Source: Candidatus Eiseniibacteriota bacterium (GTDB taxonomy: Bacteria; Eisenbacteria; RBG-16-71-46; CAZAMP01). Taken from it: a stretch of 64,000 bases of DNA. The notes below the pieces were generated by a model that saw nothing but the letters and a program-made list of their open reading frames with translations, was not told the DNA's origin and searched no databases. This document shows positions 14,440 to 50,246 of the stretch, one piece after another. The stretch lies in assembly GCA_965224245.1 (NCBI GenBank), contig OZ245046.1:3904001-3968000 (forward strand), given 5' to 3'. Numbering within the stretch: the first letter of the stretch is position 1; each line of letters starts with the position of its first letter. The translations under genes were made by a program, and so were the position numbers.

Positions 14440-16744
<2,305 letters not shown>

Positions 16745-16747
16745 GTC

Positions 16748-18280: not shown

Positions 18281-18282
18281 CG

Positions 18283-18849: not shown

Positions 18850-18853
18850 CTGC

Positions 18854-19345: not shown

Positions 19346-19376
19346 CGAGCGTCACTCCCGCCCCGTATCCGGAGCG

Positions 19377-19392
19377 CGCCCCTCGAGGGGCG
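19377..19392. other. Perfect 16-bp palindrome between atpE and atpF
   Basis: CGCCCCTCGAGGGGCG. Confidence 0.6.
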
Positions 19393-19404
19393 GTTGTTTG
19401 CGGG

Positions 19405-19635
19405 CTACAGCTTGCCCTGGAGAATGAAGACGACCAGAAGCGCGTAGATCGTGAGGGCCTCGATGAACGCGGCGCCGATGACCATCGCGGTCTGAATGCG
19501 CGGAATGGCCTCGGGCTGACGGCCCATCGCCTGCATGGCGCCACCCACGGCCGTTCCGAGTCCGATGCCCGAACCGAGCGCGGCGAAGCCGACGCCGAGC
19601 GGAAGGCCAAGTCCGAGCCAGCTTGCAGTCTCCAA
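19405..19635 (-). CDS. atpE: ATP synthase Fo subunit c (H+-type)
   Basis: GSGIGLG, RQPE loop, FIEALT; TTG start with AGGAG RBS; lacks the Q...ES/T Na+ signature. Confidence 0.97.
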   Translation of the reverse strand: METASWLGLGLPLGVGFAALGSGIGLGTAVGGAMQAMGRQPEAIPRIQTAMVIGAAFIEALTIYALLVVFILQGKL

Positions 19636-19683
19636 CGTCTTCCTCCTTGTGGGGCACGGGGAGCCGCGCCCACCTGTTTCGAG

Positions 19684-20763
19684 CTAGTGGTCCTCGTGCC
19701 CGTGGGGCAGGACCAGTGCAAAGTAGATCGTGCTCAGGATCATGAACACACCGGCCTGGATCGTGCCCATCAGGAGCGACAGGAACACGAACGGCAGGTG
19801 GATCGGAATGCCGAGCGGAATGGGCAGGAACGCCAGAATGGCGGCTCCGAGGCCGACGAACACGGCGATCAGCGTCTCCTCGCCGAAGATGTTCCCGAAG
19901 AGACGCACCGAGAGCGAGAACGGCTTGGCGATCTCGCCGATGATGTGCAGCGGGAACATCAGCACCGACATGCCCCACCCCAGCGCGTCGCGCGGCTCGC
20001 CGGCCAGATGGTAGACGTATCCGCCGATGCCCTGCATGCGAACCGCGGAGAACTGAAGATACAGAAAGACGCAGATGGCCAGCGCGACCGTCATGTGGAT
20101 GCGCGAGGTGGCCGCGAACATGAACGGGACCAGGCCCAGCATGTTCATGAACCAGATGTAGACGAAGAGCGTGCCCAGGAACGGGATGAACCGCTTGCCC
20201 TCGGGACCGAGGATCCCGAGGAGGAAGTCGTACAGTCCGCCGACGACGATCTCGACCCCGTTCTGGAGACGCCCCGGTACGAGCGTCATGTTGCGGGTGG
20301 CGGCCTGGACGATGAGCGCGATCAGGATCGCGCAGATGATCCCGAAGATGGCGGGGGCGAAGAGGTTGAGCATCGACCCGATGCGACCGTGGGAGCCGCC
20401 GGGCAATCCCCCGATGACGAAGTCCAGGAACGACGGAAGGTGCGCGCCGTGGTGCTCTCCGTCACCGTGCTCCCCATCGCCGTGCCCGGCCTCGCCGTGT
20501 GCGCCGGCGTCACCGTGATCGGCGCCCGGCGCCCCGACCTCGTGGGGGTCGGTCGCGTGGGGGTCGGACTCGTGGGCGTCGGACTCGTGGGCGTCCGCGG
20601 AGTCGGCGGCTCCATGGTCGCTCTCGGCGGACGTGGCAGAGGACAGATCGACCGTGTACAGGTCGGACCCGTCGCGTCCGGTGCGCGACCCGACGTTGAC
20701 GGCGAGCACGATCCAGGCCGCGAGGAGAACCAGCAGCACGCGTCCGCTAAAGAACCGTTGCAC
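19684..20763 (-). CDS. atpB: ATP synthase Fo subunit a with His/acid-rich N-terminal extension
   Basis: PGRLQN, N.LGLVP, SLSVRLFGN (essential Arg), IQAGVF. Confidence 0.95.
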   Translation of the reverse strand: MQRFFSGRVLLVLLAAWIVLAVNVGSRTGRDGSDLYTVDLSSATSAESDHGAADSADAHESDAHESDPHATDPHEVGAPGADHGDAGAHGEAGHGDGEHGDGEHHGAHLPSFLDFVIGGLPGGSHGRIGSMLNLFAPAIFGIICAILIALIVQAATRNMTLVPGRLQNGVEIVVGGLYDFLLGILGPEGKRFIPFLGTLFVYIWFMNMLGLVPFMFAATSRIHMTVALAICVFLYLQFSAVRMQGIGGYVYHLAGEPRDALGWGMSVLMFPLHIIGEIAKPFSLSVRLFGNIFGEETLIAVFVGLGAAILAFLPIPLGIPIHLPFVFLSLLMGTIQAGVFMILSTIYFALVLPHGHEDH

Positions 20764-21647: not shown

Positions 21648-21834
21648 CCCAGAAAACATCACTGGGCGATTGCCGGGATCGTCAGCCTAAGATTAAAGTC
21701 AAACGTGACTTACGCCTCCGATTGCGGAGGCGAGCCGACCGGATCGGCCGCCGTTCCGGGGTCGTGGGTGCCCGGTGTGGACGATCCGTTGCAGCGGCGG
21801 ATCGGTCGCCACCCCAACCGACGAGCGAACCGAC

Positions 21835-22413
21835 ATGTCAGAGTCCGACGACATCACCGTCATCCTCCAGGACGCGAGCCTGGGGCGCCGCGAGGCGCTG
21901 GACCAGCTGATGCCGCGTGTATACGACGAGCTGAGGCGGCTCGCCCAGCACATGCTCGACGACGAGCGCCCCGACCACACCCTTCAGGCCACCGCGCTCG
22001 TCCACGAGGCCTACACGAAGCTCGTGGATCAGAACCGCGTGACGTGGCAGAACCGAGCACACTTCTTCGCGGTGGCCGCGCAGTCCATTCGCCGGATCCT
22101 GATCGACCACGCCCGCGCCCGAAACCGTGCCAAGCGCGGGAGCGGACACGCGTCGGTGGAGCTGGACGCCGCGATGAACGTGCCGGACTCCCCGACGTTC
22201 GTGGATCTGATCGGGCTGGACGACGCCCTCTCGCGCCTCGCCGTCGATCACCCGGGCCCGGCCCGCGTGGTCGAGATGCGCTACTTCGCGGGCCTCAGCC
22301 ACGCCGAGACCGGCGAGGTCCTGGGCGTCGGACAGCGTACCGCCGAGCGGTACTGGCAGTTCGCCAGGGCCTGGCTCTATCGGGAGCTCGGAGCGAGCGA
22401 TCGGTCGCCGTAG
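21835..22413 (+). CDS. ECF sigma factor, TIGR02999-like type
   Basis: VYDELRRLA, HTLQATALVHEAY, WQNRAHFFAVAA, VVEMRYFAGLS, ARAWLYREL. Confidence 0.95.
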   Translation: MSESDDITVILQDASLGRREALDQLMPRVYDELRRLAQHMLDDERPDHTLQATALVHEAYTKLVDQNRVTWQNRAHFFAVAAQSIRRILIDHARARNRAKRGSGHASVELDAAMNVPDSPTFVDLIGLDDALSRLAVDHPGPARVVEMRYFAGLSHAETGEVLGVGQRTAERYWQFARAWLYRELGASDRSP

Positions 22414-24229: not shown

Positions 24230-26866
24230 TCAGCCGCCGGCGAGCGGCGCATCACCGGCCGGCTCTCCGGAAGCCCCGTGCACCAGCGCGTCGAACCGGG
24301 GCTCTCCGCGCCAGTCGTCGAAGACCACCGAGTCCCTGAGCCACGAGGCCGGGTATCCGCCGCCGACGGCCCGTTCGATCCAGTCGAGCGCGACCCGGCG
24401 CTCTCCCAGTTGCCAGAACGTCAGCGCGGCACCGAACTGAACGCTCGGATTCTCGGCACCGCGGACGAGCGCTCGCGAGATGCACGCTCGTGCACTGTCG
24501 GGAAGACCCACCTTCGGATACAGCACGGCCAGGTTCGACAGCACGTCCAGATGGTACGGGCGGCGGGTGAGCTCGTCGCGGCCCAGCCGCACGGCTTGCT
24601 CGTAGGCCTCCCGGGCCAGGGAGCGCTTGTCCGGATGCCAGAAGTAGGCGTCACCCAGGTTGAGCCAGAACTCGTACTCGGCGAACCCGGTCTGGATGGC
24701 GGTCTGGTAGGTGTCGATCGCCGCATCGAAGTCTCGCAGCGCGAAGTGCGCGGTCGCGAGGTTCGAGAACGCGGTCTCGGTGGGATGGAGCGCGATCGAT
24801 CGCGCAAGGGCGGCCGTCGCGTCACGGTAGTGGCCCTCCAGGACGTCGATCGCCCCCAGATTGCTGAACGAGAGGTAGTAGTCGGGCGCACACTCGGCCA
24901 TCGACGCGAACGCCGCGCGAGCATCGGTGAAGCGTCCCTGCCGGTACAGAAACGAGCCGAGCCACCAGTAGGGTCGCCAGTAGTGGGGTCGGTCGGAGAT
25001 GGCGCGGAGATACGTCGCCTCCTCCCCGGCGGCATCACCGGCCCGACCGTGGAGGCGCGCCAGCTCGTGAACGGCGTCGTCATCGGTGGGATCCAGCGCG
25101 GCGGCTCGGGTCAACGACGCCGTGGCCCGGGCACGATCGCCACGCGTCTCGTACACGAAGGCCGCGGTCCGGAACGCCGCGGCCCGGGTCGAGTCGAGCG
25201 AGATCGCACGGTCGCACGCCTCGAGGGCCCGGTCGAGCAGGGACTCGGCCGGCTCGGCGCCGTACAGCTTGAAGTAGGCGCGCGCCGCCGCCGCGTGGGG
25301 CGAGGCCAGGCTCGGATCGGTTCGCATCGCGAGGTCGAACTCCTCGAGCGCCGCGCGCCACGCCGTGGCGTCGGGCTGATGCAGTCGGCCGAGACCGCGC
25401 AGGTAGAATCGGAGCGTCCCCGCTCCCCAGTCCGACACACCGAACGTCTCGACGCCGCGGCCGGCCGCCGAGAGCCCCAGCACACCGTCCGACGCGGCGA
25501 CGATCGCGTCCAGGAGCCCGGCGGGACTCGAGATCGGCACCCGGAACGCCGCGCGCCGGTGCGGCTCGTCGGTCCCGGCCGCCTCCAGCGTCACCGATCC
25601 GACGTATTCCCGCTCATCGACCGCCAGGTCGGTCTCGAGGATCAGGTTCACGCCGAGCACCTCGTGTCCCGACTCGATTCCATCAACGTGATCGTCGAGC
25701 ACGTCGGAGAGATCGGCCACCTGCAGAACGTTCGACGACGTCCGACGCGCGAGCACGGTGGTCAGCGCGTCGGTGAGGCCCATCGCAAACGCCTCGCCGT
25801 CGGCATCGACGTCCGTGGTCCGGATCGGGAGCACGGCGACGTGGGCGTGCTCGGGCAGAGTCCCACCGGACGCCCCCAGTCGTGGTGATCGGAGCCGTGC
25901 GAGCCACACCGCGGCGATCAGGACGAGCGTGACCGACACCACGACGGCGCCCTTGCGGCGCGGCCCGCGCCGTGGCGATCGCGGGCGTGATCCACCACGC
26001 TCGCCGATGGCGGCGGCCGACTCCAACCGCGGGGCGACGTCCTGCGCGTGCTCGGGTCGATCCTGCACGTCCTTGGCCAGCATGTCGCCCACCAGCTCGG
26101 CCAGCTCTGCGGGGAGGTCGGGCCGCAGGCGGCCAAGCGGCTCCGCGTCGACGTGAAGCACGTTGGCGAGGGTCGTGCCGATGGTCTCCCCGCGAAACGG
26201 ATGGGCGCCGGCCAGCCACTCGTAGAACACCACGCCCAGCGAGAAGATGTCCGCGCGCGCGCTCGGCTCGTGTCCGCGGATGGTCTCGGGGGCCATGTAG
26301 GCGGGTGTGCCGAGCAGTGCGTCGCCGGCCGCGGTCTCGAGCGTCGCCGTGGCGTCACCCGAGGTCGTCATGCGCCGGGCGATCCCGAAGTCGAGGATCT
26401 TCACCTGCCCCGCGCGGGTGATCATCACGTTCTCGGGCTTGATGTCGCGATGGATGACTCCCTCGCGGTGAGCGACCGCGAGTGCATCCACGCACTGCAT
26501 CGCCACCGGCAGGAACTCCGCGAGCGCGGGCGGCGTCGCCATCCGGTCGCGGAGCGTCGTGCCGTCCACGTACTCCATCACGATCACGAACTCGCCGTCG
26601 TGCTCGAAGACGTCGAAGATGGATGCGATGCGCGGGTCCTGGAGCGCTCCTGCGCGACGGGCCTCGCGGAGCAGCCGCCGGCGAGACGACGCATCGGACA
26701 TGCGCTCCGGGGCGACGCGCTTCAGCGCGACCTTGCGATCGAGCAGAGTGTCGGTGGCGGCGTAGACGACGCCCATTCCCCCGGTGCCGATTCGCTCCAG
26801 GAGCCGGAAACGATCGGCGAGCACCTCCTGGGTCTCGGCTGGATCGGTGGGGCCGGTACCGTCCAT
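24230..26866 (-). CDS. Ser/Thr kinase with TM, TolB-N-like domain and TPRs
   Basis: GTGGMG, VALK, HRDIKPEN, DFG, YMAPE; TM AVVVSVTLVLIAAVWL; VAVLP..FAMGLTD; multiple TPRs. Confidence 0.92.
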   Translation of the reverse strand: MDGTGPTDPAETQEVLADRFRLLERIGTGGMGVVYAATDTLLDRKVALKRVAPERMSDASSRRRLLREARRAGALQDPRIASIFDVFEHDGEFVIVMEYVDGTTLRDRMATPPALAEFLPVAMQCVDALAVAHREGVIHRDIKPENVMITRAGQVKILDFGIARRMTTSGDATATLETAAGDALLGTPAYMAPETIRGHEPSARADIFSLGVVFYEWLAGAHPFRGETIGTTLANVLHVDAEPLGRLRPDLPAELAELVGDMLAKDVQDRPEHAQDVAPRLESAAAIGERGGSRPRSPRRGPRRKGAVVVSVTLVLIAAVWLARLRSPRLGASGGTLPEHAHVAVLPIRTTDVDADGEAFAMGLTDALTTVLARRTSSNVLQVADLSDVLDDHVDGIESGHEVLGVNLILETDLAVDEREYVGSVTLEAAGTDEPHRRAAFRVPISSPAGLLDAIVAASDGVLGLSAAGRGVETFGVSDWGAGTLRFYLRGLGRLHQPDATAWRAALEEFDLAMRTDPSLASPHAAAARAYFKLYGAEPAESLLDRALEACDRAISLDSTRAAAFRTAAFVYETRGDRARATASLTRAAALDPTDDDAVHELARLHGRAGDAAGEEATYLRAISDRPHYWRPYWWLGSFLYRQGRFTDARAAFASMAECAPDYYLSFSNLGAIDVLEGHYRDATAALARSIALHPTETAFSNLATAHFALRDFDAAIDTYQTAIQTGFAEYEFWLNLGDAYFWHPDKRSLAREAYEQAVRLGRDELTRRPYHLDVLSNLAVLYPKVGLPDSARACISRALVRGAENPSVQFGAALTFWQLGERRVALDWIERAVGGGYPASWLRDSVVFDDWRGEPRFDALVHGASGEPAGDAPLAGG

Positions 26867-27073
26867 GTTCCCTCGCCGCTCGCCGTTGCGGGCGTCGTCG
26901 AGTATCGCTCCCCGCGAGTCCCGCCGAGCGGACGACGGGACCGGCGCTGCGTGTACTCGCTCGGCGTCGAGGAGCGACGGGGACCCGGGGCGGGCACGCA
27001 GTCGCGACGACATGATAGCATGCACCTCTCGCGACGATCGGAAGATCGACGCCGCGACACGAGGAGCGCGCGC

Positions 27074-30437: not shown

Positions 30438-30541
30438 ACCTCCGGGCTCAGGGGAACGATCCGTTGAATCGAACGAGCGTGGTAGCATCAGCCGTCGAAC
30501 CGACGCGCGCCTCCGTGCGCGCGTCCACCCGGAGCGCGCAC

Positions 30542-31144
30542 ATGATGGGATCCCCATCGGGTCCGTCGGATCGGGCCGCCGCCAGCGACACGACGATGCT
30601 CCTCCGCCGCGCACAGGCGGGCGACGATCACGCGCTCGAGCACCTGATCCGACATCTGGGTCCGCGCCTCTCGCGCTGGGCGAGCGGACGGCTTCCCGAT
30701 CACGCGCGCGACCTGGTGGAGACGAGCGACCTGGTCCAGGAGGCGCTGGTCAACAGCGTCCGGCGAATCCCGACGTTCGCGCCGGCCAGAAGCCGGGCGT
30801 TCTTCGGGTACCTCCGCCAGGCCGTGCTCAATCGCATGCGAGACGAGCTACGGCGCGTCGGCCGACAGGGCGATCGGGATCCGATGCCGGACGACGTGAT
30901 GACCGCCGGCCCATCTCCACTCGAGGACTTGCTGGGGCGCGAGGTCCTCGACCGCTACGACAGCGCACTGGCCCGGCTGCGCGTCGAGGAGCGAGAGGCG
31001 ATCGTCGCACGCGTCGAGCTCGGGCTGGAGTTCGCCGACGTCGCCGGCATGCTGGGGAAGGCGTCACCCGATGCGGCGCGGATGGTCGTGAACCGAGCGA
31101 TGATCAAGCTGGCGAAGGAGATGTCACGCGATGCCGACCGATGA
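30542..31144 (+). CDS. ECF sigma factor
   Basis: LLRRAQAGD..AL..L, ETSDLVQEAL, YLRQAVLNRMRD, REAIVARVELG, AARM.VNRA..KLA. Confidence 0.9.
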   Translation: MMGSPSGPSDRAAASDTTMLLRRAQAGDDHALEHLIRHLGPRLSRWASGRLPDHARDLVETSDLVQEALVNSVRRIPTFAPARSRAFFGYLRQAVLNRMRDELRRVGRQGDRDPMPDDVMTAGPSPLEDLLGREVLDRYDSALARLRVEEREAIVARVELGLEFADVAGMLGKASPDAARMVVNRAMIKLAKEMSRDADR

Positions 31145-39649: not shown

Positions 39650-42600
39650 TCAGCGCCAGTCGCCCGCCGCGACGCAGCCCGCCCAGCGGTGGGGATGCGT
39701 GGAGTAGCCGGCCTCTCGCAATGCCGCGAGCCTCACGAGGCACGCGGCGCGACACGCCTCGGCCGTGCTCAGGCCGTCGCGAAAGCGCGCGGCATACAGC
39801 GCCGACATCCAGTCTCGGGTGGCCTCGTCGCTGACCGGCCACAGGCTCATGATGAGCGTGCGGGCGCCCGCGATCTCGACCGCCCGGCGGAGACCAAACA
39901 CGCCCTCCGAGCTCGATACCCGCCCGACCCCCGTGTTGCAGGCGGAGAGCACGACCCAGCCCACACCCTCGAGATCCAGGCCCACGATTTCCTCGGCGGT
40001 GAGAACGCCGTCGTACTGTGAACTTCTCTCCTCCGCGCGGCGGTTCGCGCCCGCGAGCGCGAGCCCGGACAGGCGAAGCGCGCTGGCATCGACGGTGACC
40101 GAGCGTTTGGCTCCGTCCATCCGGGTCGACTCGCCCGAGGCGGCGAGAGCCCAGCCACACGTGGGGTCGACGAAGAAGCCGTGCGTGGCGACGTGGACGA
40201 CCTCTCGAGCCGGCGCCAGCGAACGCAGCGCCGCCTCGGTGGCCTCTGACCCGAGCAGGACGCGTGTCCGGCCGTCATCGCCCTCCGTCGCCGCGCGGTC
40301 GGCGGGTGATGCACCCCCATGGCGGCGGCCGTGACGGAACACCGTCGCGACCTCGGTGACCTCCTCGGCCGTGAGCGGCAGCGGCTCGAACACGAGCTCC
40401 CCGAAGTCCAGGCAATCGGCCGTGAATCCTCTGTAGTCGACGACCTCGGGGGGGAGCCGGCCGGCCACGAGCGGCTCGTCACCGCTCGCCGGCGACGCGT
40501 CGAATGCGACCCCACCCAGCGCGAGCAGGCCCCGGCCGTGCCGATCTCCTTGGGATGCCGCGACGAGCCGCTCGCTCGACAGCACGTGGAGCGTCGGCGC
40601 CGCCTCGACGAGGTAGGAATCGGCTCCCGACGGGAGCGACGCGAACGACACGAGATTGAGCGCACCCGCCGGCACGATGAGCGCGAGCGAGCGATCGTCC
40701 ACCACCGACGCGACGGGGTCCCAGATGCGTGAGCGGAGCGCGTCTCCGGCCCGGCGATAGCGGTCGAGCACGTCGGGGTCGACGCGATCACGCCGAATCC
40801 CCCGTGTCCGATCGCCGGTCGACGCGATGCCGGTCACCTCGCGCCGCCACGACGCGACCAGCGAATCGATCTTGGCGGCACTCCCGAGCGGAACCACCGG
40901 CACGTCGACACGATCGTCGCGCAGGACGAAGGCGAGGTAGCGGCCATCGCCCGAGCGCGATGCGAACGGATCCGGTCTGGGCGACTGCTGGTGCCAGTAG
41001 CGCGCGTAGGCCACGATCGCGCTCCGGTCCGGCAGCGCCGCACGCACCTCCGCGATGCCGGCATCGACTCCTCGCGATGCGACGCGTCTGGTCGCCTCAC
41101 CCTGGGCAAACTCCGCTCGCTCGAGGCGCGCTCGTGCCCGCTCGAGGCGGGCGCGATACGCCTCGGGCTCGCCGGCCGGTCCGAGCACGAGGAGCTCGGC
41201 GAGGGTGTCCCGAGCCGCCCCCAGCTCCGCCGCGAGCTCCAGAACGACGGGGTCGGAGCTCGTGACGCCGAGACGACGACGCCGGCCCATCTCGTCCAGC
41301 ACGAGGGCTCGCGAGCGGATCAGCTCGTCCAGGGCCCGCGACACGAGCTCCTTCTCCTCGCCGTGATCCACCGCCACCGACAGAAGCCAATCGAGACTCA
41401 TGCGCAGTCGCGCCGCGGACTCCAGCGCCTGACGCTCGCTCAGAACGGACATCGTCTCGCGGAGCTGGCGCCGGTTGATCCCGTTCGCACGGGCGGCGCT
41501 GGTCATCGCGAGACCGGGATCGCCCAGGTCCGCGAGCACCATGGCCCGCATCACCAGGCTCGACGCGAGATCGGGATGGTCGCTCCCGAGCACCTCTTCA
41601 CGACCCTCGACCGCGGCCTCGATGAGCGCGAGGGCCTCGGTGGGGCGCCCCCCCCACCTCAGCTCGGATGCGAGGTTGTGACGCGAGGTGAGGACATCCG
41701 GATGCCGGGCGTCCAGGTGCGCCTCGCGTAGCGAGAGGACGTCACGGTGGATCGACTCCGCCGCGGCGGGACGACCGCGCTCGGCTTCCACGATCGCCAG
41801 ATTGTTCAACGTGGACGCGACCGACAGCTCGCCCAGCGATGCGTTCGCGCGGTAGATCGAGAGCGCTCGTTGGAGGTATCGCTCCGCGTCGTCGTACCGA
41901 CCGAGGTGGATGCACGCCGCGCCGAGCGCGTCGGCGACCGCCGCCACGTAGGCGTGGTCGGCGCCGAGCACCCGCTCGCGGATCGTGAGCGCCTCCTCGA
42001 GGTAGTCGATCGCGCCCTGGTGATCTCCCGTCGCCGCGAGAACGTCTCCGAGGACCTTGAGGTTCTGAGCCAGCGTCGGGTGGTCGGGAGCCAGTCGCGC
42101 GCGGCGGACCACCAGCGCGCGCTCCAGGAAAACGCGTGCCTCCGCGTGATAGCCGAGACGCTGCTGGATCACGGCCAGGTTGTGCATCGCCGACACCGTG
42201 GTCAGGTGCTCCGGTCCCCGTGTCTTCTCCTGAATCGCCAACGATCGCGCGAGCGCGTCCCGCGCCTCGACGTATCGCCCCGCGAAGACGAGCGTGGACC
42301 CGATCTGATTGAGAGCCGATGCGACCTTCGTATGCTCGGGGCCGAGCACACGCCGGCGGATGTCGAGCACGCGCTCGGCGACGGCCAGCGCGCGTGCCGT
42401 CTGTCCGCTGTCGCGCAGTACGTAGTTCAGGAACGAGAGGGCCTTCGCGGTCTCCAGGGCGTCGGGTCCGAGCTCGCGCTCTCGCAACGCCACCGCGCGC
42501 TCGGCGAGATCGATGGCGCGATCGTACTCCGCCGCCACGCGGTGGAGCGTCGCGCGATTGACGAGGCTGTGAGCCAGCGCCACCGGCTGGTCCGCCTCGT

Positions 42601-43045
42601 GGGCTTCCCGGATCACGACCGCCCGATCGGCGAGGGGCTCGAGCGTCTCGGCGGTCGGGTTGCGCGTACGGATGTGGGCGAGGACGAGGAGATCGATCAC
42701 GCTGGCGGTGGCGGGAGAGTCGTCTCCGGTCGCCGCTTCGATGCGTGGCAGTAGCGCGTCCAGGCCGTCGATCGCCTCGTCCAGCTCGAAGCGCTCGACC
42801 GCGGCTTCGAGCGCCCGATACTCCGTCTCGAGCGCCTCGGGTACGTCGGCCCACGCGGTGGAATCGGCGTGCGCGCGCGATCCTGACGCGGGCGAGGCGC
42901 TCGTTTGGCTCGGCACGTCCGGCGAGGCCGGGGCGCTCGATGCGGGCGCGACGGGTACGCTCGCCGCACCCGCCAGCGCCACGCAGAGCGTGCCCACGAG
43001 GCGTTGTCGTGTCGATCGTGTCATGCGCGCGCGTCGTTTCATCAT
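39650..43045 (-). CDS. TPR-CHAT (caspase-like) protease with N-terminal signal/TM segment
   Basis: About 9-10 kinesin-light-chain-type TPRs (LGPEH..VA); CHAT catalytic His VHVATHGF and Cys VLSACNTG; SLWPVSD; WAG.VAAGDW. Confidence 0.92.
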   Translation of the reverse strand: MMKRRARMTRSTRQRLVGTLCVALAGAASVPVAPASSAPASPDVPSQTSASPASGSRAHADSTAWADVPEALETEYRALEAAVERFELDEAIDGLDALLPRIEAATGDDSPATASVIDLLVLAHIRTRNPTAETLEPLADRAVVIREAHEADQPVALAHSLVNRATLHRVAAEYDRAIDLAERAVALRERELGPDALETAKALSFLNYVLRDSGQTARALAVAERVLDIRRRVLGPEHTKVASALNQIGSTLVFAGRYVEARDALARSLAIQEKTRGPEHLTTVSAMHNLAVIQQRLGYHAEARVFLERALVVRRARLAPDHPTLAQNLKVLGDVLAATGDHQGAIDYLEEALTIRERVLGADHAYVAAVADALGAACIHLGRYDDAERYLQRALSIYRANASLGELSVASTLNNLAIVEAERGRPAAAESIHRDVLSLREAHLDARHPDVLTSRHNLASELRWGGRPTEALALIEAAVEGREEVLGSDHPDLASSLVMRAMVLADLGDPGLAMTSAARANGINRRQLRETMSVLSERQALESAARLRMSLDWLLSVAVDHGEEKELVSRALDELIRSRALVLDEMGRRRRLGVTSSDPVVLELAAELGAARDTLAELLVLGPAGEPEAYRARLERARARLERAEFAQGEATRRVASRGVDAGIAEVRAALPDRSAIVAYARYWHQQSPRPDPFASRSGDGRYLAFVLRDDRVDVPVVPLGSAAKIDSLVASWRREVTGIASTGDRTRGIRRDRVDPDVLDRYRRAGDALRSRIWDPVASVVDDRSLALIVPAGALNLVSFASLPSGADSYLVEAAPTLHVLSSERLVAASQGDRHGRGLLALGGVAFDASPASGDEPLVAGRLPPEVVDYRGFTADCLDFGELVFEPLPLTAEEVTEVATVFRHGRRHGGASPADRAATEGDDGRTRVLLGSEATEAALRSLAPAREVVHVATHGFFVDPTCGWALAASGESTRMDGAKRSVTVDASALRLSGLALAGANRRAEERSSQYDGVLTAEEIVGLDLEGVGWVVLSACNTGVGRVSSSEGVFGLRRAVEIAGARTLIMSLWPVSDEATRDWMSALYAARFRDGLSTAEACRAACLVRLAALREAGYSTHPHRWAGCVAAGDWR

Positions 43046-43140
43046 CGGGTCACACGTCGAGCCTCAATGGTATCAGCGACGGCACCTCCCGGCCACGCAC
43101 GCCGCGCCGATCGCACCGGGATCGAGGCGATCGGGGGCGC

Positions 43141-46100
43141 TCATCTCGTCACCAGGACCTTTCGCGAGCGTACGCCCTCGCCGGTCACCAGGCGAACGAG
43201 GTAGACGCCGCTCGGCACCGGGTGACCGCGCGCGTCGCGACCATCCCACCTGATCGTGTGTCGTGGGGACCGCAGGTCACGGTCGTGCAGCGAGGTCACG
43301 TATCGTCCGGCCACGTCGTGGACGGTGACCTCGACTCGCCCGGGGCGATCGAGCACGACCTCCAGCCGCGTGTGCGATCGCGTGGGGTTGGGGAACGCGC
43401 TCGACACGATCGGCGGCAGCCCGGCCGGCGCCTCCCCGTCGGCGAGCGCCAGAATCGTGCCTCCGGTCCGGATGTCCTTCTCGGTCGTGGCGTTGCCAGG
43501 GAGGGAGAACCACGGCGAGTGAGGAAACAGCGGTGACCGCGTGACGACCCGGGCTCGCCAGTGGTACGAGGTCGCCTCTTCGAGACCGGTCACGAAGCCC
43601 ATGAAGAGCAGCTGGCTGCCTGCGCCGGACACCGGAGTGCCGGTGTCGAGGAACGCCGGGCTCCGTCCGAGGCCCGCGCCATCGAAGGGGACGCCCAGTG
43701 GCTTCACCTCCCACTCCAGGCGGACGTCGCCGCGGCCGGCCGGCGTGCGCCCCGCCACCGAGATCCGGAAGGCGGTGTCGTCGTCGGAGACGCCGAGGAG
43801 GCTCACGGGCGTCGTCGACGCGATTCGCCTCTGCTGCACGGGGCGGTCCATGCCGTCTCCACCGTTGCCCAGGAACCCCAGGGTGCGGCCGCCGTGAATC
43901 GTCGCATCCGACCAGCCGGGTGCACCGACCAGCACGTCGGCATAGCCATCCCCGTTCACGTCGCCGGCCCCACAGACGGACCAGCCGAGACGTGCGGACG
44001 CGAGGCCGCCGGTCGTCGCCCACCCGGCGCGACGACTCGGCCCGGACACGCTGCCGGTGTAGACGAGGGCCGCCCCCTCCGAGGGAGCGCCGGCGGACCA
44101 CGCGTAGCTGCCGACGATGACGTCGGAGTAGCCGTCCCCGTTCACGTCACCGGCGCCGGCCACGTCATGTCCGTAGGCCACCGACGAGAGTCCGGAGCCG
44201 GCCGCCCAGTCGGCGTTGCCCGGCTCACCGGGCGCTCCGAGGCCCGAGGCGCCACCCAGCCACACGAAGGCGCGCCCCTCGTCGACCTGATCGGCGTCGT
44301 ACAGATAGGCGCCGACGATCACGTCGGAGTAGCCGTCCCCGTTCACGTCGCCCGCGCTGGCCGCCGACCACCCGAACGCCGCCGCGCCCTGGTTGCTCTC
44401 CGCGTGCCAGTCGGCGGTCGTCTCGTCGCCCGAGGCGCCGAGACCGCCGGGGCTCCCGTGCCACACGAACACGGTTCCCTCCCCCGCTTCCGCGCCACCG
44501 ACGTCCGAGTATGCGGGCGCTCCGACGATGACGTCCGAGAACCCATCGGCGTTCACGTCTCCGGCCGTGGCGACACGGCCGCCGAACGTCGCGTTCGGCA
44601 GCGTGCCCGAGGTGGTCCACGCGGCGACCGCACCCGGACCGCTCTCGCCTCCGTGATGCAGATACACGCGACCGCGCTCCCCGTCGTACCCGCTGGCCCC
44701 GATCAGCACGTCGGCGAAGCCATCCCCGTCGACGTCTCCGGCCGAGGCAACCGAGGTGCCGAACAGGTCGCCGACCGCCTCCCCGAACTCCCGCCAGTCC
44801 ACGTTGGTGGGGACCCCGAACGCCCCGAGACCCGTCGGGCTCCCGAACCACGCAAACGCGGCCCCCGCGACACCGCCCTGGTCGTAGTACGGCGCGCCGA
44901 CGATGACGTCGTCATATCCGTCGCCGTCGACGTCGCCCGCCATCGCCACCGAAGCCCCGAGCCGGGCGCCTGCCTGATTGCTCTCCGCACGCCACACGCC
45001 GGTGAGATCCAGACCATCGCGCGAGCCGAAGTAGACGAACGCGGCGCCTTCGTCGACCTCACCGCTGTCGTAGAGAGGACTTCCGATGATGACGTCCGAG
45101 TAGCCGTCCCCGTTCACGTCACCGGCGCCGGCGACGGACGATCCCCAGAGTGCGGCGTTCTGTGTCGTCCCGGCGCCGAATGCCGCGGACGTGTCGAGCC
45201 CTTCGGGAACGCCGCGATAGCAGGCGGCGAATCCGTCGCCGGACGTCGGCGAGCCGACGAGCACGTCGCCGAAGCCGTCGCCGTCCACGTCACCCGCCGC
45301 GGCAACCGCCATCCCGAAGTTCCCGAGCGAAACGGTGCCGTAGAGCGACTCGCTCGCCGTTCCCGACAGCCCGGCCGCACCTCCCTCGAACAGGAACGCA
45401 CCGCCGACGTTCGCCACCGTCGGACCGTCCACGCCGGGTGCCCCCACCACGACGTCGGCGTAGCCGTCGCCGTTCACATCCCCCGCGCTCGCCACCACCG
45501 TACCGGCGTAGCCGTCTTCCTGGGCCGGCCCGAACGACCACACGGGAAGCAGCGTGGGACCGCTGGCGGTCCCGAGGTACGCGAAGGCGGCCCCCTCGGC
45601 GGGTGCGGTGGAGGACCACAGAGGCGATCCGACGAGCACGTCGGCATAGCCGTCACCGTTCACGTCGCCGGCGCTCGACACGGAGATGCCGTAGTTCGTG
45701 TCGTCGATTCCGTCGGTCGCGCTCCACATCGCGCTCGCGGGAGTGGCGCCGGCCGGCAGTCCGGAGGCGCCGCCGCCCCACACGAAGGCCGCCCCCCACG
45801 GCGCGCCGGCCCATTCGTACCCGGTCGCCCCGGCGATGACGTCGTCGTATCCGTCACCGTTCACGTCCCCCGCCGTCGACACCGAGGCGCCGAGACGAGC
45901 ACCGGCGGCGCCCCCGGTCACGACCCACGAGCCCGCGAAGCCCAGCCCCGCGGCCGATCCGTAGAAGACGGTCAGTCGCCCCTCGTCGGCCACCGCGCCA
46001 TCCCAGCGCCAGGTCCCGAACGCGACGTCGGCGAACCCATCGCCGTTCACGTCGCCCGCGCAGGCGACCGAGTTCCCCAGCTCCGCGAACGCCTGGTTGC

Positions 46101-47286
46101 TCTCGAAGAGCCAGTCGATCCCGGTGAGCGCACCCGAGGGGCCCAGCCCCCCCGCACCGCCGTACCAGACGAAGCACGCGCCCTCGTCCGTCTGTCCGTT
46201 GGAGTAGAGACGAGCCCCGACGATCACGTCGTCATAGCCGTCGCCGTTCACGTCGCCCGCGCTGGACACCGACGAGCCGAGGTACGTGTTCGCCAATCCC
46301 CCCACGTTCGTCCAGTCCGGGGTCGGAGACGGACCCGACGGTGATCCGAGATGCAGGTAGACCTTGCCCTGATCGGTCGTCCCGGAGTCGTAATCGGGGG
46401 CACCGACGATCACGTCGGAATAGCCGTCTCCGTTCACGTCACCGGCGGTCGCGACCGCGGCCGCGAAGAGGCTTCCGCCCTGCTCGCTCTCGAAGATCCA
46501 GTCCGGCGTCACGATCAGGGGATCGACCACCACGGGATACGTCGCGTCGCGGTCGTCGACCACGATGCGGACGTGGTCACCGCCGAGCTCGAGCCGGGAC
46601 GGGAGCTCGCGACCGCACGCGTCCACCACCACGAGATCTCGGTACCGGAGAACGTGCGCGCCGTCGTGAGAGAAGTCGATCCACCGTCCCGAAGGGTCGA
46701 GGTCCGCGAGGAGCCTCCTCGGCTCGTTCGTGCACTCGGTCAGGGATCCCTCGATGCAGAGCGCGCCGGCGCCGGGCGGAGAGCGATGCAGCGTGAATCC
46801 CTGCTCCACCCCGCGGGGCGTGTTCTCGTACCACTCGACGATCCCCGCTCTGGCATAGACGACGCGCCGGTCGTCGGCGACGGGCGAGACGGCCTCGGCA
46901 GGTCGCATGAGATCGGTGCGACCCCAGCGCGTCGTCGTCCACCCGAGCTCCCAGTCGGAACGCGGATCGGTCCGGCTGACCACCCGGATGCCGTCGGGAT
47001 CGAAGAACGTCCTGAGACCGTGCTCGCGGTTCGGCGCCTGGAGGACGCCTCCCGGGCCCGGTGTCACCGCGTACTCGGCGGCAATCATGGCGGCGCGAGC
47101 CGCTGACCACCAGTCGCCGTCGATGCCGGTGGACGAGAGGCTCGTCGCGTCCGATCCTCCGGCCGCGGCCGGGCTCGGCGCGGACGCCGGCGGCGAGACG
47201 CCGTGGCCCGGCAGCGGTGCGGTCGCGAGGGCAACCACCGTGATCAGCAACGCGGCGAGAGCGCGTCTGGGATTTCGAGCGGACAT
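43141..47286 (-). CDS. Secreted FG-GAP (integrin-alpha-like) repeat protein with FlgD-Ig C-terminal domain
   Basis: GGAGG RBS; signal peptide; 14 AGDV[ND][GA]DG[YF]xD repeats; FPNPTR..WDGRD..PSGVYLVRL. Confidence 0.93.
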   Translation of the reverse strand: MSARNPRRALAALLITVVALATAPLPGHGVSPPASAPSPAAAGGSDATSLSSTGIDGDWWSAARAAMIAAEYAVTPGPGGVLQAPNREHGLRTFFDPDGIRVVSRTDPRSDWELGWTTTRWGRTDLMRPAEAVSPVADDRRVVYARAGIVEWYENTPRGVEQGFTLHRSPPGAGALCIEGSLTECTNEPRRLLADLDPSGRWIDFSHDGAHVLRYRDLVVVDACGRELPSRLELGGDHVRIVVDDRDATYPVVVDPLIVTPDWIFESEQGGSLFAAAVATAGDVNGDGYSDVIVGAPDYDSGTTDQGKVYLHLGSPSGPSPTPDWTNVGGLANTYLGSSVSSAGDVNGDGYDDVIVGARLYSNGQTDEGACFVWYGGAGGLGPSGALTGIDWLFESNQAFAELGNSVACAGDVNGDGFADVAFGTWRWDGAVADEGRLTVFYGSAAGLGFAGSWVVTGGAAGARLGASVSTAGDVNGDGYDDVIAGATGYEWAGAPWGAAFVWGGGASGLPAGATPASAMWSATDGIDDTNYGISVSSAGDVNGDGYADVLVGSPLWSSTAPAEGAAFAYLGTASGPTLLPVWSFGPAQEDGYAGTVVASAGDVNGDGYADVVVGAPGVDGPTVANVGGAFLFEGGAAGLSGTASESLYGTVSLGNFGMAVAAAGDVDGDGFGDVLVGSPTSGDGFAACYRGVPEGLDTSAAFGAGTTQNAALWGSSVAGAGDVNGDGYSDVIIGSPLYDSGEVDEGAAFVYFGSRDGLDLTGVWRAESNQAGARLGASVAMAGDVDGDGYDDVIVGAPYYDQGGVAGAAFAWFGSPTGLGAFGVPTNVDWREFGEAVGDLFGTSVASAGDVDGDGFADVLIGASGYDGERGRVYLHHGGESGPGAVAAWTTSGTLPNATFGGRVATAGDVNADGFSDVIVGAPAYSDVGGAEAGEGTVFVWHGSPGGLGASGDETTADWHAESNQGAAAFGWSAASAGDVNGDGYSDVIVGAYLYDADQVDEGRAFVWLGGASGLGAPGEPGNADWAAGSGLSSVAYGHDVAGAGDVNGDGYSDVIVGSYAWSAGAPSEGAALVYTGSVSGPSRRAGWATTGGLASARLGWSVCGAGDVNGDGYADVLVGAPGWSDATIHGGRTLGFLGNGGDGMDRPVQQRRIASTTPVSLLGVSDDDTAFRISVAGRTPAGRGDVRLEWEVKPLGVPFDGAGLGRSPAFLDTGTPVSGAGSQLLFMGFVTGLEEATSYHWRARVVTRSPLFPHSPWFSLPGNATTEKDIRTGGTILALADGEAPAGLPPIVSSAFPNPTRSHTRLEVVLDRPGRVEVTVHDVAGRYVTSLHDRDLRSPRHTIRWDGRDARGHPVPSGVYLVRLVTGEGVRSRKVLVTR

Positions 47287-47320
47287 GGCGACCTCCTGTT
47301 CCGTGTGTCTGACCAGTGCG

Positions 47321-47351
47321 AACACGGATCATCGGAGGCTCGAAGTTGCAG
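47321..47351 (-). promoter_or_regulatory. Putative ECF promoter (copy 2) upstream of the FG-GAP gene
   Basis: CTGCAACTTCG-N10-GATCCGTGTT; shares the motif at 48283-48313. Confidence 0.6.
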
Positions 47352-47393
47352 CAGGATCGGTCGCGAACGGGGGGCGATGGGCTCCGGGCGCGG

Positions 47394-48263
47394 TCACGGC
47401 CGGTGGAGCACGTCCACGACGCGAACCGTTCCGCTCGCCGCCTCGAGGATGGCCCGCGTGGCCGACGTCGCCGACGACAGCGTCAGCTCGGGCGCCACCG
47501 AGTCCAGCCGGCGGTCCAGCGACTCGAGGTCCGGCGCTGAAGAGAACGCCGCCACGAGGATGCGTTCGGAGCCGGCCTCGCCGGACAGCGACCATCGATG
47601 CTCGCTCGCGGACGGCGGGACGACGTGGGTCCGACCGGCGGGCCACGGCGCCTGCGCGCCGGCCGGGGTGTCCGGCCACAGGAGCGCGACCTGTCCATCG
47701 GAGTCGACGTGAACGGCGACGACGAACGCCGGCTCGGTGAGCTCGAACGCCACCACGAACCGATCGCCGGTTCGGAGCTCCTCCACCGGCGACGCTCCGC
47801 CGGTGCCGCGCACCCCGATCGGTCGGGTCACGAAGACGCTCTCCCACGGTCCGGCCTCGTTCGAGGGACGCAGCAGGACGATTGTGGCGGCGGCCGCCGC
47901 GACGACGGGCATGAAGACTCGCCACGAGACGACCCGGGCCCACGCCTGCCGCCATCCGGCACCGCCGGCCGCTTCGCCTGCAGCGCCCGTCTCGCGAAGG
48001 CCCAGCTGCCGGCGGAGCGCCGCGAGGCTGGCCTCCTCGGCTCGACGCTCTGCGGGCGACATCGGGTCGGTCTCGGCCGGCCCGGGGCGAAGATCCAGGT
48101 CCCCGTCGGGATCGGGTGCCCGCTCGACGGCCCGGAGTCGCTCCAGCGTTTCGCGGTACCGCGGATGGCCGTCCAGAAACGCGTCCACACGGCGACGCTC
48201 GGCGTCATCGAGGTCGTCGTAGGCGAGAATGAGCTCGCGCATGGTCCGGGCCTCGTCGGTCAT
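47394..48263 (-). CDS. Anti-sigma factor with TM and extracytoplasmic DUF4384-like domain
   Basis: ASD-like N-terminus (LDDAERRRVDAFL..), TM VFMPVVAAAAATIVLL, LRTGDRFVVAFEL..FVVAVHVDSDGQVALLWP, GSERILV. Confidence 0.75.
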   Translation of the reverse strand: MTDEARTMRELILAYDDLDDAERRRVDAFLDGHPRYRETLERLRAVERAPDPDGDLDLRPGPAETDPMSPAERRAEEASLAALRRQLGLRETGAAGEAAGGAGWRQAWARVVSWRVFMPVVAAAAATIVLLRPSNEAGPWESVFVTRPIGVRGTGGASPVEELRTGDRFVVAFELTEPAFVVAVHVDSDGQVALLWPDTPAGAQAPWPAGRTHVVPPSASEHRWSLSGEAGSERILVAAFSSAPDLESLDRRLDSVAPELTLSSATSATRAILEAASGTVRVVDVLHRP

Positions 48264-48282
48264 GGCTTCCACCTCAGCTCGA

Positions 48283-48313
48283 AAGACTGCTCGCGACCCC
48301 ACCGAAGTTGCAG
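48283..48313 (-). promoter_or_regulatory. Putative ECF promoter (copy 1) between sigma and anti-sigma genes
   Basis: CTGCAACTTCG-N10-GAGCAGTCTT. Confidence 0.6.
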
Positions 48314-48360
48314 TCCGCCATGCGCGGACCGATCACGTGGCGTGATCACGGGCGCTCCCC

Positions 48361-48975
48361 TCACCTCGAGTCCTCCTCCGGAAGCGCGAGATCGAGCCGC
48401 TCCACCAGGCACCGCCTGAGCGCCAGTCGGCCTCGCCGGATCCACGCTCTGACGGTGTTCAGGGGCGCCGCCATGTGGCGCGCGATCTCATCGTAGGACA
48501 TCTCGTGATCGAGCAGATGAACGATGGCCTGCCGGTGCCGGTCGTTCGTCAACGTCGAGAGGCAGGCGTCGAACGCGGCCCGGATCTCGACGTCCGCGAG
48601 GCGGTCGTCGGCGCTCCGGCTCGCCGACACCGGCGCACGCGGGTCGAGAGCGTCGCCGTGTGCGTGCTCGCGATCGGACCGGATGCGCTCGCGACGCAGG
48701 CAGTCGAGGAGGCGATAGTTGGCCCGCTTGCGAAACCAGGCCCAGAAGCAGCCGGGTCGCGTGTATACGAAGCGACCCGATCGGAGGTCGGACAGAACAC
48801 CGAGAAGCGTATCGTGTGTCCAGTCCTGGCGTAGCCCGTCGTCGCGCGTGAGACGGCACGCCATGCGATAGACCGGACGGTGCGTACGGGTGAGGAAATC
48901 GTCCACCGCGGGATCGGACCCACGGAGGAGTCCCTCGACCAGCGAGTGCTCGTCATCGTCTCGTCGGGCGTCCAT
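48361..48975 (-). CDS. ECF sigma factor
   Basis: VYRMACRL, FWAWFRKRANY, region 4.2 MSYDEIARHMAAPLNTVRAWIRRGRLALRRCL. Confidence 0.9.
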   Translation of the reverse strand: MDARRDDDEHSLVEGLLRGSDPAVDDFLTRTHRPVYRMACRLTRDDGLRQDWTHDTLLGVLSDLRSGRFVYTRPGCFWAWFRKRANYRLLDCLRRERIRSDREHAHGDALDPRAPVSASRSADDRLADVEIRAAFDACLSTLTNDRHRQAIVHLLDHEMSYDEIARHMAAPLNTVRAWIRRGRLALRRCLVERLDLALPEEDSR

Positions 48976-49088
48976 GCCTGGAGCATACGCACGCACGAGC
49001 GGATTCTGCGAGACCGATCCCCACGCGGACCCCGGGGGCGTCGGGTCCCACCGCCGGCGCACGTGCCGACGGTGGGCGACGGATCGAC

Positions 49089-49841
49089 CTAGAAGCTCAC
49101 CCTGGCCTGAAGCCCGAACGTGACGTGGTCCTCGTCCACGCTCGCAGCCGAGAGGGCATCACCGATCGTCGAGTTCAGGACGGCCGTGTACGACAGCGAC
49201 GGCGACACCTGGATCCCGTTCGGGAACGAGACGTCGACCGCGGCGCGAAGACCGGCATCGCTCAGCGAGCCCTCGTCGACGGCGAAGGTCTGGGCGTGAT
49301 AGCTCCCGGTCGCGGCCGCGACGTGCGCGGTCAGGTTCAGCGCCGCGATCGGGGCCACCGGCATGCCGTAGCCGGCGCCGAGCCGGGCGTACGCGCCGTC
49401 GGTATCCCCGACGCCCAGGTACACCGCGGCCGATGCCTCGACCGGCAGGCGCGTGGTCGACGCCGATGCGAACAGCTCGTGCGAGTCCACGTCGGTCACC
49501 GGATAGCGACGCAGGAGATAGCCGCCGTTCAGCTCGACCGCACCGACCTCGCGACGCAGGCCGGCTTCCACGTCGATCTCGGTGAACTCGCCCGAGTGCG
49601 ACTGGCGATCGGTGAGATCGGAGAAACCGGCCGCGCGAAACGCGAAGACACCGGACGACATGCCGATGCCCGTCTCGACCACGGGCTCGTCGTTCATGAC
49701 CATCCCTCGCGTGACGTGCGCGGAGTAGACACCGAGGTCGGCGGACACCTCGACTCCCCCGGGGGCTGCGAGTGCCGGTGACGCGATCAGCGTGACCGTG
49801 GCGGCGAGTCCGGCCGCCAGCGAGCGGTTTCGTCGTTCCAT
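49089..49841 (-). CDS. Outer-membrane beta-barrel, TorF/TIGR02001-like putative porin
   Basis: Signal peptide; S.HVTRGM..NDEPV; EIDVEAG; C-terminal ARVSF. Confidence 0.75.
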   Translation of the reverse strand: MERRNRSLAAGLAATVTLIASPALAAPGGVEVSADLGVYSAHVTRGMVMNDEPVVETGIGMSSGVFAFRAAGFSDLTDRQSHSGEFTEIDVEAGLRREVGAVELNGGYLLRRYPVTDVDSHELFASASTTRLPVEASAAVYLGVGDTDGAYARLGAGYGMPVAPIAALNLTAHVAAATGSYHAQTFAVDEGSLSDAGLRAAVDVSFPNGIQVSPSLSYTAVLNSTIGDALSAASVDEDHVTFGLQARVSF

Positions 49842-49896
49842 CGTTCTGGCCTTCCCTTCGCGGCTGAGTCGTCGGGGCTCGGCGTGGATCGCCGAG

Positions 49897-49942
49897 GGGC
49901 GTTGGCCCATCGAGTTCGGTATCGACCGAACCGCGAGCGCGG
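49897..49942 (-). ncRNA. Candidate DUF1646-type (Na+-sensing) riboswitch aptamer
   Basis: CGGTT-cggtcgataccg-AACTCGATGGGCC in the 5' UTR of the porin gene. It resembles my recollection of the DUF1646 consensus; the outer stem is weak. Confidence 0.4.
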
Positions 49943-50246
49943 GGAATGGCGGCTTCGACGAAAACGATCGGGAGGGTTCCCGACTGGTTCGGGGCGTGCG
50001 GGGCGCGGCTCGTTTGGACCGCACCGGCGTGCGATCGGTCCCGGCGTCCGAACGCCGAGACGGACGGAGCGGCTGGCGTCGCGCGGTCGTGCGGCGCCGG
50101 GAGCGCCGGGCGTGCCCGGGACGGAACGGGCGGCGGAGGGCGCGCGGTCGCGCCCGGCGCGGCGCGCCCGGCGCGGAACGGGCCGCGAGACGGGAGCTCG
50201 AGGAGGCGAGTCGCGGACCGCGCTCGCCCCCCGGACGCGTGGCCGG

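Follow-up and report, generated by a model that had tools for sequence, protein, structure and literature searches.

A conserved module of ECF sigma factor, DUF4384 anti-sigma factor and secreted TPR-CHAT protein in Eisenbacteria, with a possible site-1 protease role for CHAT

The 6.9 Mb genome of a Candidatus Eiseniibacteriota bacterium (27 contigs) contains, within a stretch of 64,000 nucleotides (contig positions 3904001-3968000, 66-73% G+C; hereafter the window), genes for a sigma factor of the extracytoplasmic function (ECF) type, an anti-sigma factor with a DUF4384 domain, and a secreted protein that joins tetratricopeptide repeats (TPRs) to a CHAT domain. These three genes form a real and strongly conserved module, to which a gene for a surface protein is optionally added. 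By analogy, the interpretation that fits it best is a form of the protease-gated sigma control typified by DdvA of Myxococcus xanthus, but split between two proteins and acting in trans. We tentatively favour a role for the secreted TPR-CHAT protein as the site-1 protease that cuts the anti-sigma factor.

In the window, the three genes and a gene for an FG-GAP protein make up a cluster of four open reading frames (ORFs; Table 1), all on the minus strand, which span 39650-49062 and lie where a first-pass annotation of the window had placed them. The gaps between them, measured from the longest ORFs, are 58, 68 and 95 nt, and a consensus scan found no terminator-like site between the four genes. 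To see how widely the combination occurs, we ran a profile of the anti-sigma family against 206 genomes of the window's phylum and fetched up to 20 kb around the full-length matches. The fetched loci were scanned in six frames with hidden Markov models (HMMs) built from the genome's own ECF, CHAT, DUF4384, kinase and type IX secretion system (T9SS) tail sequences; two loci from a scan of genome contigs and two from a metagenome scan were added. A clear family member is present in 21 loci, two of which (L060 and L079) end too soon, leaving 19 that could be assessed.

A TPR-CHAT gene lies within 8 kb of the anti-sigma gene in 17 of the 19 loci (the window, L038, L039, L059, L061-L064, L066-L071 and L073-L075), so the combination of ECF, DUF4384 anti-sigma and TPR-CHAT genes put forward by the first-pass annotation is indeed conserved. 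In L072, CHAT is found only 4 kb upstream and the downstream side is cut off. The ECF gene directly precedes the anti-sigma gene in 16 of the 17 loci, the contig of L073 ending first, and the anti-sigma factor and the TPR-CHAT protein are encoded by separate genes in all of them, the window included. Fifteen of the 17 loci come from 15 genomes of 11 genera in 4 families (L059 and L061 are unplaced); we give no cross-genome P value, because these kin are not independent. The L059 record is labelled uncultured Fibrobacteraceae, yet it has 73% G+C and an Eisenbacteria-type set of ECF, anti-sigma, CHAT and T9SS genes, and the label may be off.

Table 1. Coordinates of the module and its parts in the window.
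Feature	Position	Strand	Details
ECF (group 4) sigma factor	48361-48975	minus	ORF start possible up to 49062
Single-pass anti-sigma factor: N-terminal helical domain, transmembrane helix, periplasmic DUF4384 beta domain (predicted)	47394-48302	minus	PF14326, structure model, profile
Anti-sigma transmembrane helix	47877-47933	minus	Residues 124-142 of the 302-residue ORF; hydropathy 1.84 over 19 residues
DUF4384 domain	47547-47777	minus	Residues 176-252 of the 302-residue ORF; PF14326, 43.6 bits (cut-off 27), E 3.2e-11
Candidate protease site Arg152-Gly153 (289-residue numbering)	47805-47810	minus	Start of variable-length loop
Secreted FG-GAP protein, 1394 residues, 14 repeats	43141-47325	minus	FG-GAP, E 2e-102; signal-peptide-like N-terminus
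T9SS type A C-terminal sorting domain of FG-GAP protein	43150-43395	minus	TIGR04183, 35 bits (cut-off 23); FlgD_ig, 28.2 bits
Secreted TPR-CHAT protein, 1131 residues, kinesin-light-chain-type TPRs and C-terminal CHAT	39650-43045	minus	Pfam
CHAT domain	39659-40753	minus	Residues 765-1129, Pfam envelope
Predicted catalytic dyad, His955 codon	40181-40183	minus	In motif typical of CHAT
Predicted catalytic dyad, Cys1036 codon	39938-39940	minus	In motif typical of CHAT

The anti-sigma factor probably starts at the ATG at 48263, which gives a protein of 289 rather than 302 residues. It had been annotated as a transmembrane (TM) anti-sigma factor with an extracytoplasmic DUF4384 domain, and this description agrees with the PF14326 match, the single hydrophobic segment and the match of the N-terminal part of the family profile to the anti-sigma factor RslA (PDB 3HUG_B, E 7e-4); the extracytoplasmic location of DUF4384 is predicted from the topology. 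An AlphaFold2 model of the 289-residue form (mean predicted local distance difference test score, pLDDT, 85.6) has four N-terminal helices, a TM helix at residues 114-130 and, after a short linker, a β-rich domain at residues 140-288 with pLDDT over 90. A Foldseek search with this model returned only generic Ig-like β-sandwich matches for the β domain. The position of the gene directly after the ECF gene, the N-terminal helices of the model and the one TM helix are those of a class I anti-sigma factor of the zinc-binding (ZAS) type. The HxxxCxxC zinc motif is present in L038, L039 and most of 90 aligned relatives; the window's protein has no Cys at those positions. Anti-sigma domains without zinc are known, so the missing motif does not exclude anti-sigma function.

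A word-indexed homologue search with the anti-sigma factor found only the protein itself, and a HMMER profile search was needed to reach its relatives. The profile, built from four orthologues and run against 1.84 billion cluster representatives, matched 635 sequences with E≤1e-3, of which 156 reach E≤1e-10 and 76 reach E≤1e-30, most of them 260-310 residues long and aligned over their full length. Ten relatives that we looked up are named 'DUF4384 domain-containing protein [Candidatus Eisenbacteria bacterium]' or 'hypothetical protein'. Within the family, the position of Arg152-Gly153 is occupied by R in 72 and by G in 67 of 90 members and is followed by gap-rich columns; we infer from this pattern a candidate cleavage site.

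The TPR-CHAT protein has a strong match to CHAT (PF12770, 175.7 bits, E 1.8e-51) and to TPR_12 (E 8e-73), and its N-terminus resembles a signal peptide on inspection and by hydropathy. The TPR part matches kinesin light chain structures in a sequence search of the PDB; that search returned TPR proteins only, and Csx29, DdvA and separase could not be aligned residue by residue from it. The His/Cys dyad, intact according to the first-pass annotation, is invariant in all 22 local CHAT sequences and in 84 of 84 aligned sequences. The fold and the dyad are those of a CHAT protease of clan CD, protease activity being predicted from sequence. There are at least 3940 relatives of the TPR-CHAT protein, some of them named from Acidobacteriota, Rokubacteria and others.

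The ECF product matches TIGR02937 (63.5 bits, cut-off 42.9) and Sigma70_r4_2 (33.1 bits, cut-off 25.7), with a score of 20.6 bits for Sigma70_r2 that is under the cut-off of 24. Sigma-2 and sigma-4 regions only, a length of ~205 residues and the ECF profile match place it in group 4. Its orthologues share the motif ER.LVEGL...FL.RTHHPV, and in a tree of the 69 ECF sigma factors of the genome it forms a long isolated branch. A co-directional gene at 49089-50024 (minus strand) ends 26-113 nt upstream of the ECF gene; its product has a signal-peptide-like start and a weak, sub-threshold match to Gcw_chp (E 3e-4), and may be an outer-membrane β-barrel.

The association of CHAT with ECF sigma factors extends well beyond this locus. 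Scans of the genome gave 16 CHAT, 6 DUF4384 and 93 ECF-type matches. Our own HMMs place 12 of the 15 CHAT genes no more than 9 kb from an ECF gene; under random placement 2.8 did so on average and never more than 9, so that none of 5000 trials reached 12. Likewise, four of five DUF4384 genes lie within 9 kb of CHAT (random mean 0.21; 0/5000). Judged from the Pfam domains of the intervening genes, there are three designs. The order ECF, anti-sigma, CHAT is found in the window, L006, L007 and L010-L013, with L009 arranged as CHAT, ECF, anti-sigma. In L001, L002 and L004, and in L040, L041, L055 and L056 of relatives, the ECF gene is followed by a membrane Ser/Thr kinase with a periplasmic DUF4384 domain and then by CHAT. 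In the third design (L003, L008 and L014), CHAT has no ECF gene nearby. The CHAT-linked ECF sigma factors belong to at least five lineages among the 69 of the genome, and the CHAT-linked label changes 5 times on their tree, compared with a mean of 10.4 for shuffled labels (as low in 0/500 shuffles).

We asked whether all CHAT-linked anti-sigma factors of the genome contain a hidden DUF4384 domain, and rejected this idea, as hhalign matched the N-terminal part only. The other CHAT-linked anti-sigma factors thus resemble the window's family N-terminally only, which makes DUF4384 a frequent rather than an obligatory partner of CHAT. What does match is the predicted compartment. All eight TM-bearing sensors (the window, L001, L002, L004, L006, L009, L012 and L013) pair with CHAT proteins that have a signal peptide or lipobox, and all three anti-sigma factors without a TM segment (L007, L010 and L011) pair with CHAT proteins without a signal peptide. 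These assignments were made by hydropathy and inspection on unverified start codons; if they hold, the match in 11 of 11 pairs is our strongest hint of an encounter between CHAT and the neighbouring protein's sensor domain.

The orientation of the CHAT gene varies between loci. It is co-directional with the anti-sigma gene in five (the window, L039, L059, L069 and L074) and convergent, outside the ECF operon, in the other 12 of the 17, so that the co-oriented arrangement described for the window holds there but not as a rule. The anti-sigma and CHAT genes stand tail to tail in nine loci, with 98 nt from stop to stop in L063 and only 8-20 nt in the other eight (L038, at 18288-18295, L061, L062, L066, L067, L068, L071 and L073). 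Stops this close leave no room for two terminators, and the convergent transcripts may overlap or use one bidirectional terminator. Because adjacency has been kept even where CHAT has left the operon, hitch-hiking in an operon is an insufficient explanation, and a functional tie other than co-transcription is indicated.

Adjacency might also be kept by co-regulation if the TPR-CHAT protein were an output of the sigma factor and not its regulator, namely a periplasmic protease that is induced together with T9SS cargo or acts on it. ECF operons often include their target genes, and in the window CHAT closes a co-directional cluster whose genes are separated by short gaps. These loci repeatedly contain large T9SS-sorted genes, and the classification of ECF54 leaves it undecided whether CHAT neighbours regulate or respond (PMC7826278 supplement). 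However, convergent CHAT genes lie outside the ECF operon, and the compartment match between CHAT and sensor is not something an output would predict. T9SS genes are also too common in this genome to be telling: our HMM finds 454 ORFs with a T9SS tail, and 25% of random 4.3-kb intervals contain one. A search of the regions before 16 ECF genes for the -35/-10 dyad of a common ECF-type promoter gave nothing above background, the best dyads being no commoner than in shuffled sequences. Upstream of the ECF gene, nine of 17 loci (L038, L062, L063, L064, L067, L068, L069, L071 and L075, but not the window) instead have a TANNNT hexamer 5-8 nt before an in-frame ATG (500 shuffles: mean 0.17, maximum 2), a pattern that suggests a leaderless mRNA with a -10 box of the housekeeping type more than autoregulation from an ECF-type promoter. 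Taken together, we regard it as unlikely that the TPR-CHAT protein is a mere output.

The FG-GAP gene is a different matter. The first-pass annotation had described a surface protein of 14 repeats, and the 14 stretches are there (Table 1), as is a T9SS sorting tail that the annotation had not mentioned; the signal peptide and the TIGR04183 tail are those of a T9SS type A cargo protein. A 'twin propeller' shape is suggested by 14 being 2 x 7. As a core part of the module, however, the gene is not borne out: a T9SS-sorted gene follows the anti-sigma gene in six of 19 loci, encoding an FG-GAP protein in three (the window, L065 and L069) and a DUF11 protein in the others (L064, L070 and L075). In L059, a CARDB protein is encoded after CHAT. 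FG-GAP repeats are common in the genome (145 matches), and the FG-GAP proteins of the window and L069 share ~30% similarity, at the level of the repeats only. The FG-GAP gene is therefore a recurrent but optional passenger of the operon, and plausibly an output gene of the sigma factor. We also noticed a second kind of DUF4384 protein in relatives (L043-L046, L048, L050-L054 and L057), of 420-590 residues, with a signal peptide and with no kinase or ECF gene in the vicinity; several of them have, ~4 kb downstream, a gene for a T9SS-tail protein of ~1100-1270 residues.

Our working model for the module is as follows. The cytoplasmic N-terminal domain of the anti-sigma factor would hold the ECF sigma factor at the inner membrane, with the DUF4384 β domain exposed in the periplasm, and the periplasm would also receive the exported TPR-CHAT protein. 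Once its TPR superhelix, as we presume, has picked up a signal, CHAT would act as a site-1 protease on the periplasmic part of the anti-sigma factor, possibly cutting after Arg152, in the conserved R-G at the start of the variable loop. A site-2 protease of the M50 family, for which the genome has four candidate matches, would then cut within the membrane and release the sigma factor. The released sigma factor would transcribe its regulon, probably including the gene of the T9SS-sorted surface protein after the anti-sigma gene where there is one (the FG-GAP protein in the window). This model agrees with what was observed, namely the components and their topology, the intact dyad, the conserved adjacency, the matching compartments and the M50 candidates; that the two proteins bind, that CHAT cuts and where, what it senses and which genes respond are inferred. 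The first-pass annotation had proposed a similar circuit, with TPRs sensing a ligand, CHAT cleaving the anti-sigma factor and the freed sigma factor inducing the FG-GAP protein; its conserved combination of genes, topology and intact dyad stand, but not the FG-GAP protein as a core part.

Several observations weigh against the site-1 protease model. In the AlphaFold2 model, the linker between the TM helix and the β domain has only ~9 residues. L065 has no CHAT gene in 16 kb, and three loci with an ECF gene and a kinase-DUF4384 gene (L016, L042 and L047) lack CHAT as well. CHAT also pairs with anti-sigma factors that have sensor domains other than DUF4384, and with the ECF-linked Ser/Thr kinases bearing DUF4384 (L001, L002 and L004), for which cleavage is not an obvious activating step. 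The window's CHAT falls into a clade with 99% support together with six of the seven CHATs that adjoin kinase-DUF4384 genes; the CHATs of L038 and L039, where the anti-sigma genes are orthologous to the window's, do not belong to its group. Co-divergence of ECF, anti-sigma and CHAT as a unit is not supported by this tree; the phylogeny of CHAT is unlike that of the anti-sigma family, which indicates that partners have been exchanged and that the module was not inherited as a rigid block. A complex prediction for residues 305-1131 of the CHAT protein and 128-289 of the anti-sigma factor, each with its own alignment, gave interface scores (ipSAE) of 0.03 and 0.01, which is evidence neither way.

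The kinase-linked CHATs suggest another role, in which the TPR-CHAT protein serves as a co-sensor: by docking onto the anti-sigma factor's or kinase's periplasmic domain it would alter the signalling state of that protein without cutting it, any protease activity being aimed elsewhere or at itself. TPR arrays are well known as protein-binding scaffolds, and binding is a simpler input to a kinase than cleavage. The same kind of CHAT stands beside the ECF-linked DUF4384 kinases of all seven loci named above, and the window's own CHAT groups with kinase-linked ones. A pure binding role does not account for the invariant dyad, though: a His and a Cys retained in every aligned sequence imply that catalysis is under selection. 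On balance, we find a non-cleaving co-sensor improbable.

The closest precedent for the site-1 protease model is DdvA, a zinc-type anti-sigma factor that continues, in the periplasm, into a TPR-CHAT part of its own with a His-Cys dyad (PMC11506125, PMC6061681). Its authors propose self-cleavage by CHAT as the site-1 step ahead of RseP, so that the idea of a protease-gated sigma factor is not wholly new (PMC11506125). RseP-dependent loss was shown for DdvA lacking its TPR-CHAT part (PMC11506125). The DdvA dyad mutants, however, are indistinguishable from the wild type, and phage infection did not lead to any autoproteolysis that its authors could see (PMC11506125), which makes this precedent a proposal and not a demonstration, and weighs against our model too. 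The DdvS/DdvA system and the window's module have in common an ECF sigma factor, an anti-sigma domain with one TM helix and a periplasmic TPR-CHAT. In DdvA, however, anti-sigma domain and TPR-CHAT share one polypeptide, which would cut itself in trans within a dimer, whereas the window's TPR-CHAT is secreted as a protein of its own from its own gene (Table 1), and the anti-sigma factor has DUF4384. DdvS drives a CRISPR (clustered regularly interspaced short palindromic repeats) and CBASS (cyclic-oligonucleotide-based antiphage signalling system) island, of which there is none in the window. DdvA-like proteins are reported by their authors from Myxococcota and one Comamonas only (PMC11506125, PMC6061681), and our anti-sigma family profile matches the N-terminus of DdvA no better than E 0.29.

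In a third alternative, the direction of control is reversed. In a securin/separase-like arrangement, the DUF4384 domain would be a pseudo-substrate inhibitor that silences CHAT, and if the anti-sigma factor were destroyed in some other way, the sigma factor and an active protease would be set free together. TPR-CHAT is structurally related to separase, which securin holds (as cited in PMC11506125), and tight pairing and matching compartments suit an inhibitor and its enzyme as well as an enzyme and its substrate. The pairing of CHAT with anti-sigma factors that have unrelated sensor domains speaks against a dedicated inhibitor, and we consider both the silencing of CHAT by DUF4384 and the joint release very unlikely.

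In type III-E CRISPR systems, the TPR-CHAT protein Csx29 cleaves Csx30, which binds RpoE (10.1101/2022.08.17.504292). The first-pass annotation had drawn this analogy, and it is apt: of the seven groups into which the C-terminal domains of Csx30 fall, two correspond to domains already known, DUF4384 among them (10.1101/2022.08.17.504292). Both systems encode together a TPR-CHAT protease, a protein that binds sigma or, in the window, is predicted to do so (with DUF4384 in some type III-E lineages) and an ECF-type sigma factor. The type III-E module is cytoplasmic and is switched on when Cas7-11 binds its target RNA, whereas both partners in the window are predicted to be extracytoplasmic. Consistent with the CRISPR-independent setting assumed in the first-pass annotation, a Tandem Repeats Finder run and domain scans found no CRISPR array in the window and no Cas domain among the proteins scanned (38 of the 45 ORFs of our own gene caller and two other ORFs, the smallest being omitted); association with Cas7-11 and an array, the mark of type III-E, was thus looked for and not seen within the window, the Cas7-11 search not having been extended to the rest of the genome. 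The anti-sigma family profile matched no solved Csx30 chain in the PDB at E≤1, a DUF4384-type Csx30 sequence not being among those compared.

Three further systems invite comparison. RseA, DegS and RseP define the classical route, in which a single-pass anti-sigma factor receives a periplasmic site-1 cut and then an M50 site-2 cut. The window's anti-sigma factor is likewise single-pass, and M50 candidates are present in its genome, but DegS is a PDZ serine protease and the site-1 protease proposed here would be a clan CD cysteine protease with TPRs. ECF54 of Actinobacteria has conserved CHAT/TPR neighbours and no recognisable anti-sigma factor (PMC8999054; PMC7826278 supplement), and a proteolytic mode of control was put forward for it (Huang et al. 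2015 as cited; PMC7826278 supplement). It resembles the window's module in its conserved neighbourhood with a TPR-containing CHAT protein. ECF54 is, however, restricted to Actinobacteria, where it occurs with a subtilase and a carboxypeptidase-regulatory-like protein, neither of which is a neighbour in the window; the window, from a different phylum, has a clear anti-sigma factor. Lastly, some ECF sigma factors are paired with Ser/Thr kinases, such as EcfK (PMC8999054). The paralogous modules L001, L002, L004 and L016, with an ECF gene followed by a membrane kinase, are of this kind; the window's module has an anti-sigma factor and no kinase, and the kinase modules of the genome add DUF4384 and a neighbouring CHAT. 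Anti-sigma factors of ECF25 may have DUF4384 (PMC7826278 supplement), and published lists of domain architectures include DUF4384 in kinases and in orthocaspases (10.1101/2025.01.12.632604, PMC7475262). Our literature searches, which covered the earlier ECF groups of the PMC7826278 supplement, found no description of the split module of ECF, DUF4384 anti-sigma factor and secreted TPR-CHAT, or of its kinase version.

Other signalling genes lie elsewhere in the window. A 1236-residue protein encoded at 2661-6371 (minus strand) combines a Ser/Thr kinase domain with an NB-ARC/AAA_16 NTPase of the STAND class (signal transduction ATPases with numerous domains) and long TPR arrays. Two further ECF sigma genes and a kinase-TPR gene are located at 21775-22413 (plus), 24230-27025 (minus) and 30464-31144 (plus), beside an F-type ATP synthase operon at 14440-20763. 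The genome as a whole contains 69-93 ECF matches, ~27 of them directly beside a kinase, and 15-16 TPR-CHAT genes; with 454 T9SS-tail ORFs and ~100 Ser/Thr kinase matches, its signalling and secretion repertoire is very large for 6.9 Mb.

A role for CHAT as a site-1 protease has not been demonstrated for DdvA. Here, the enzyme and its presumed substrate are two separate small, expressible proteins, which turns caspase-like gating of an ECF sigma factor into a two-component cleavage question. The module also gives a functional context to the ~156 representative proteins of the anti-sigma family, and it suggests a possible origin of the sigma-factor branch of type III-E CRISPR. On a broader view, which we hold to be doubtful, TPR-CHAT proteins, secreted or cytoplasmic, would be general, exchangeable input devices that have been recruited repeatedly to ECF/anti-sigma pairs and ECF-linked kinases; DUF4384 would be a preferred docking or cleavage domain, and Csx29-Csx30-RpoE a cytoplasmic offshoot captured by Cas7-11. 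With a dozen ECF-CHAT modules in one genome, protease-gated sigma control would be a major mode of signalling in this phylum.

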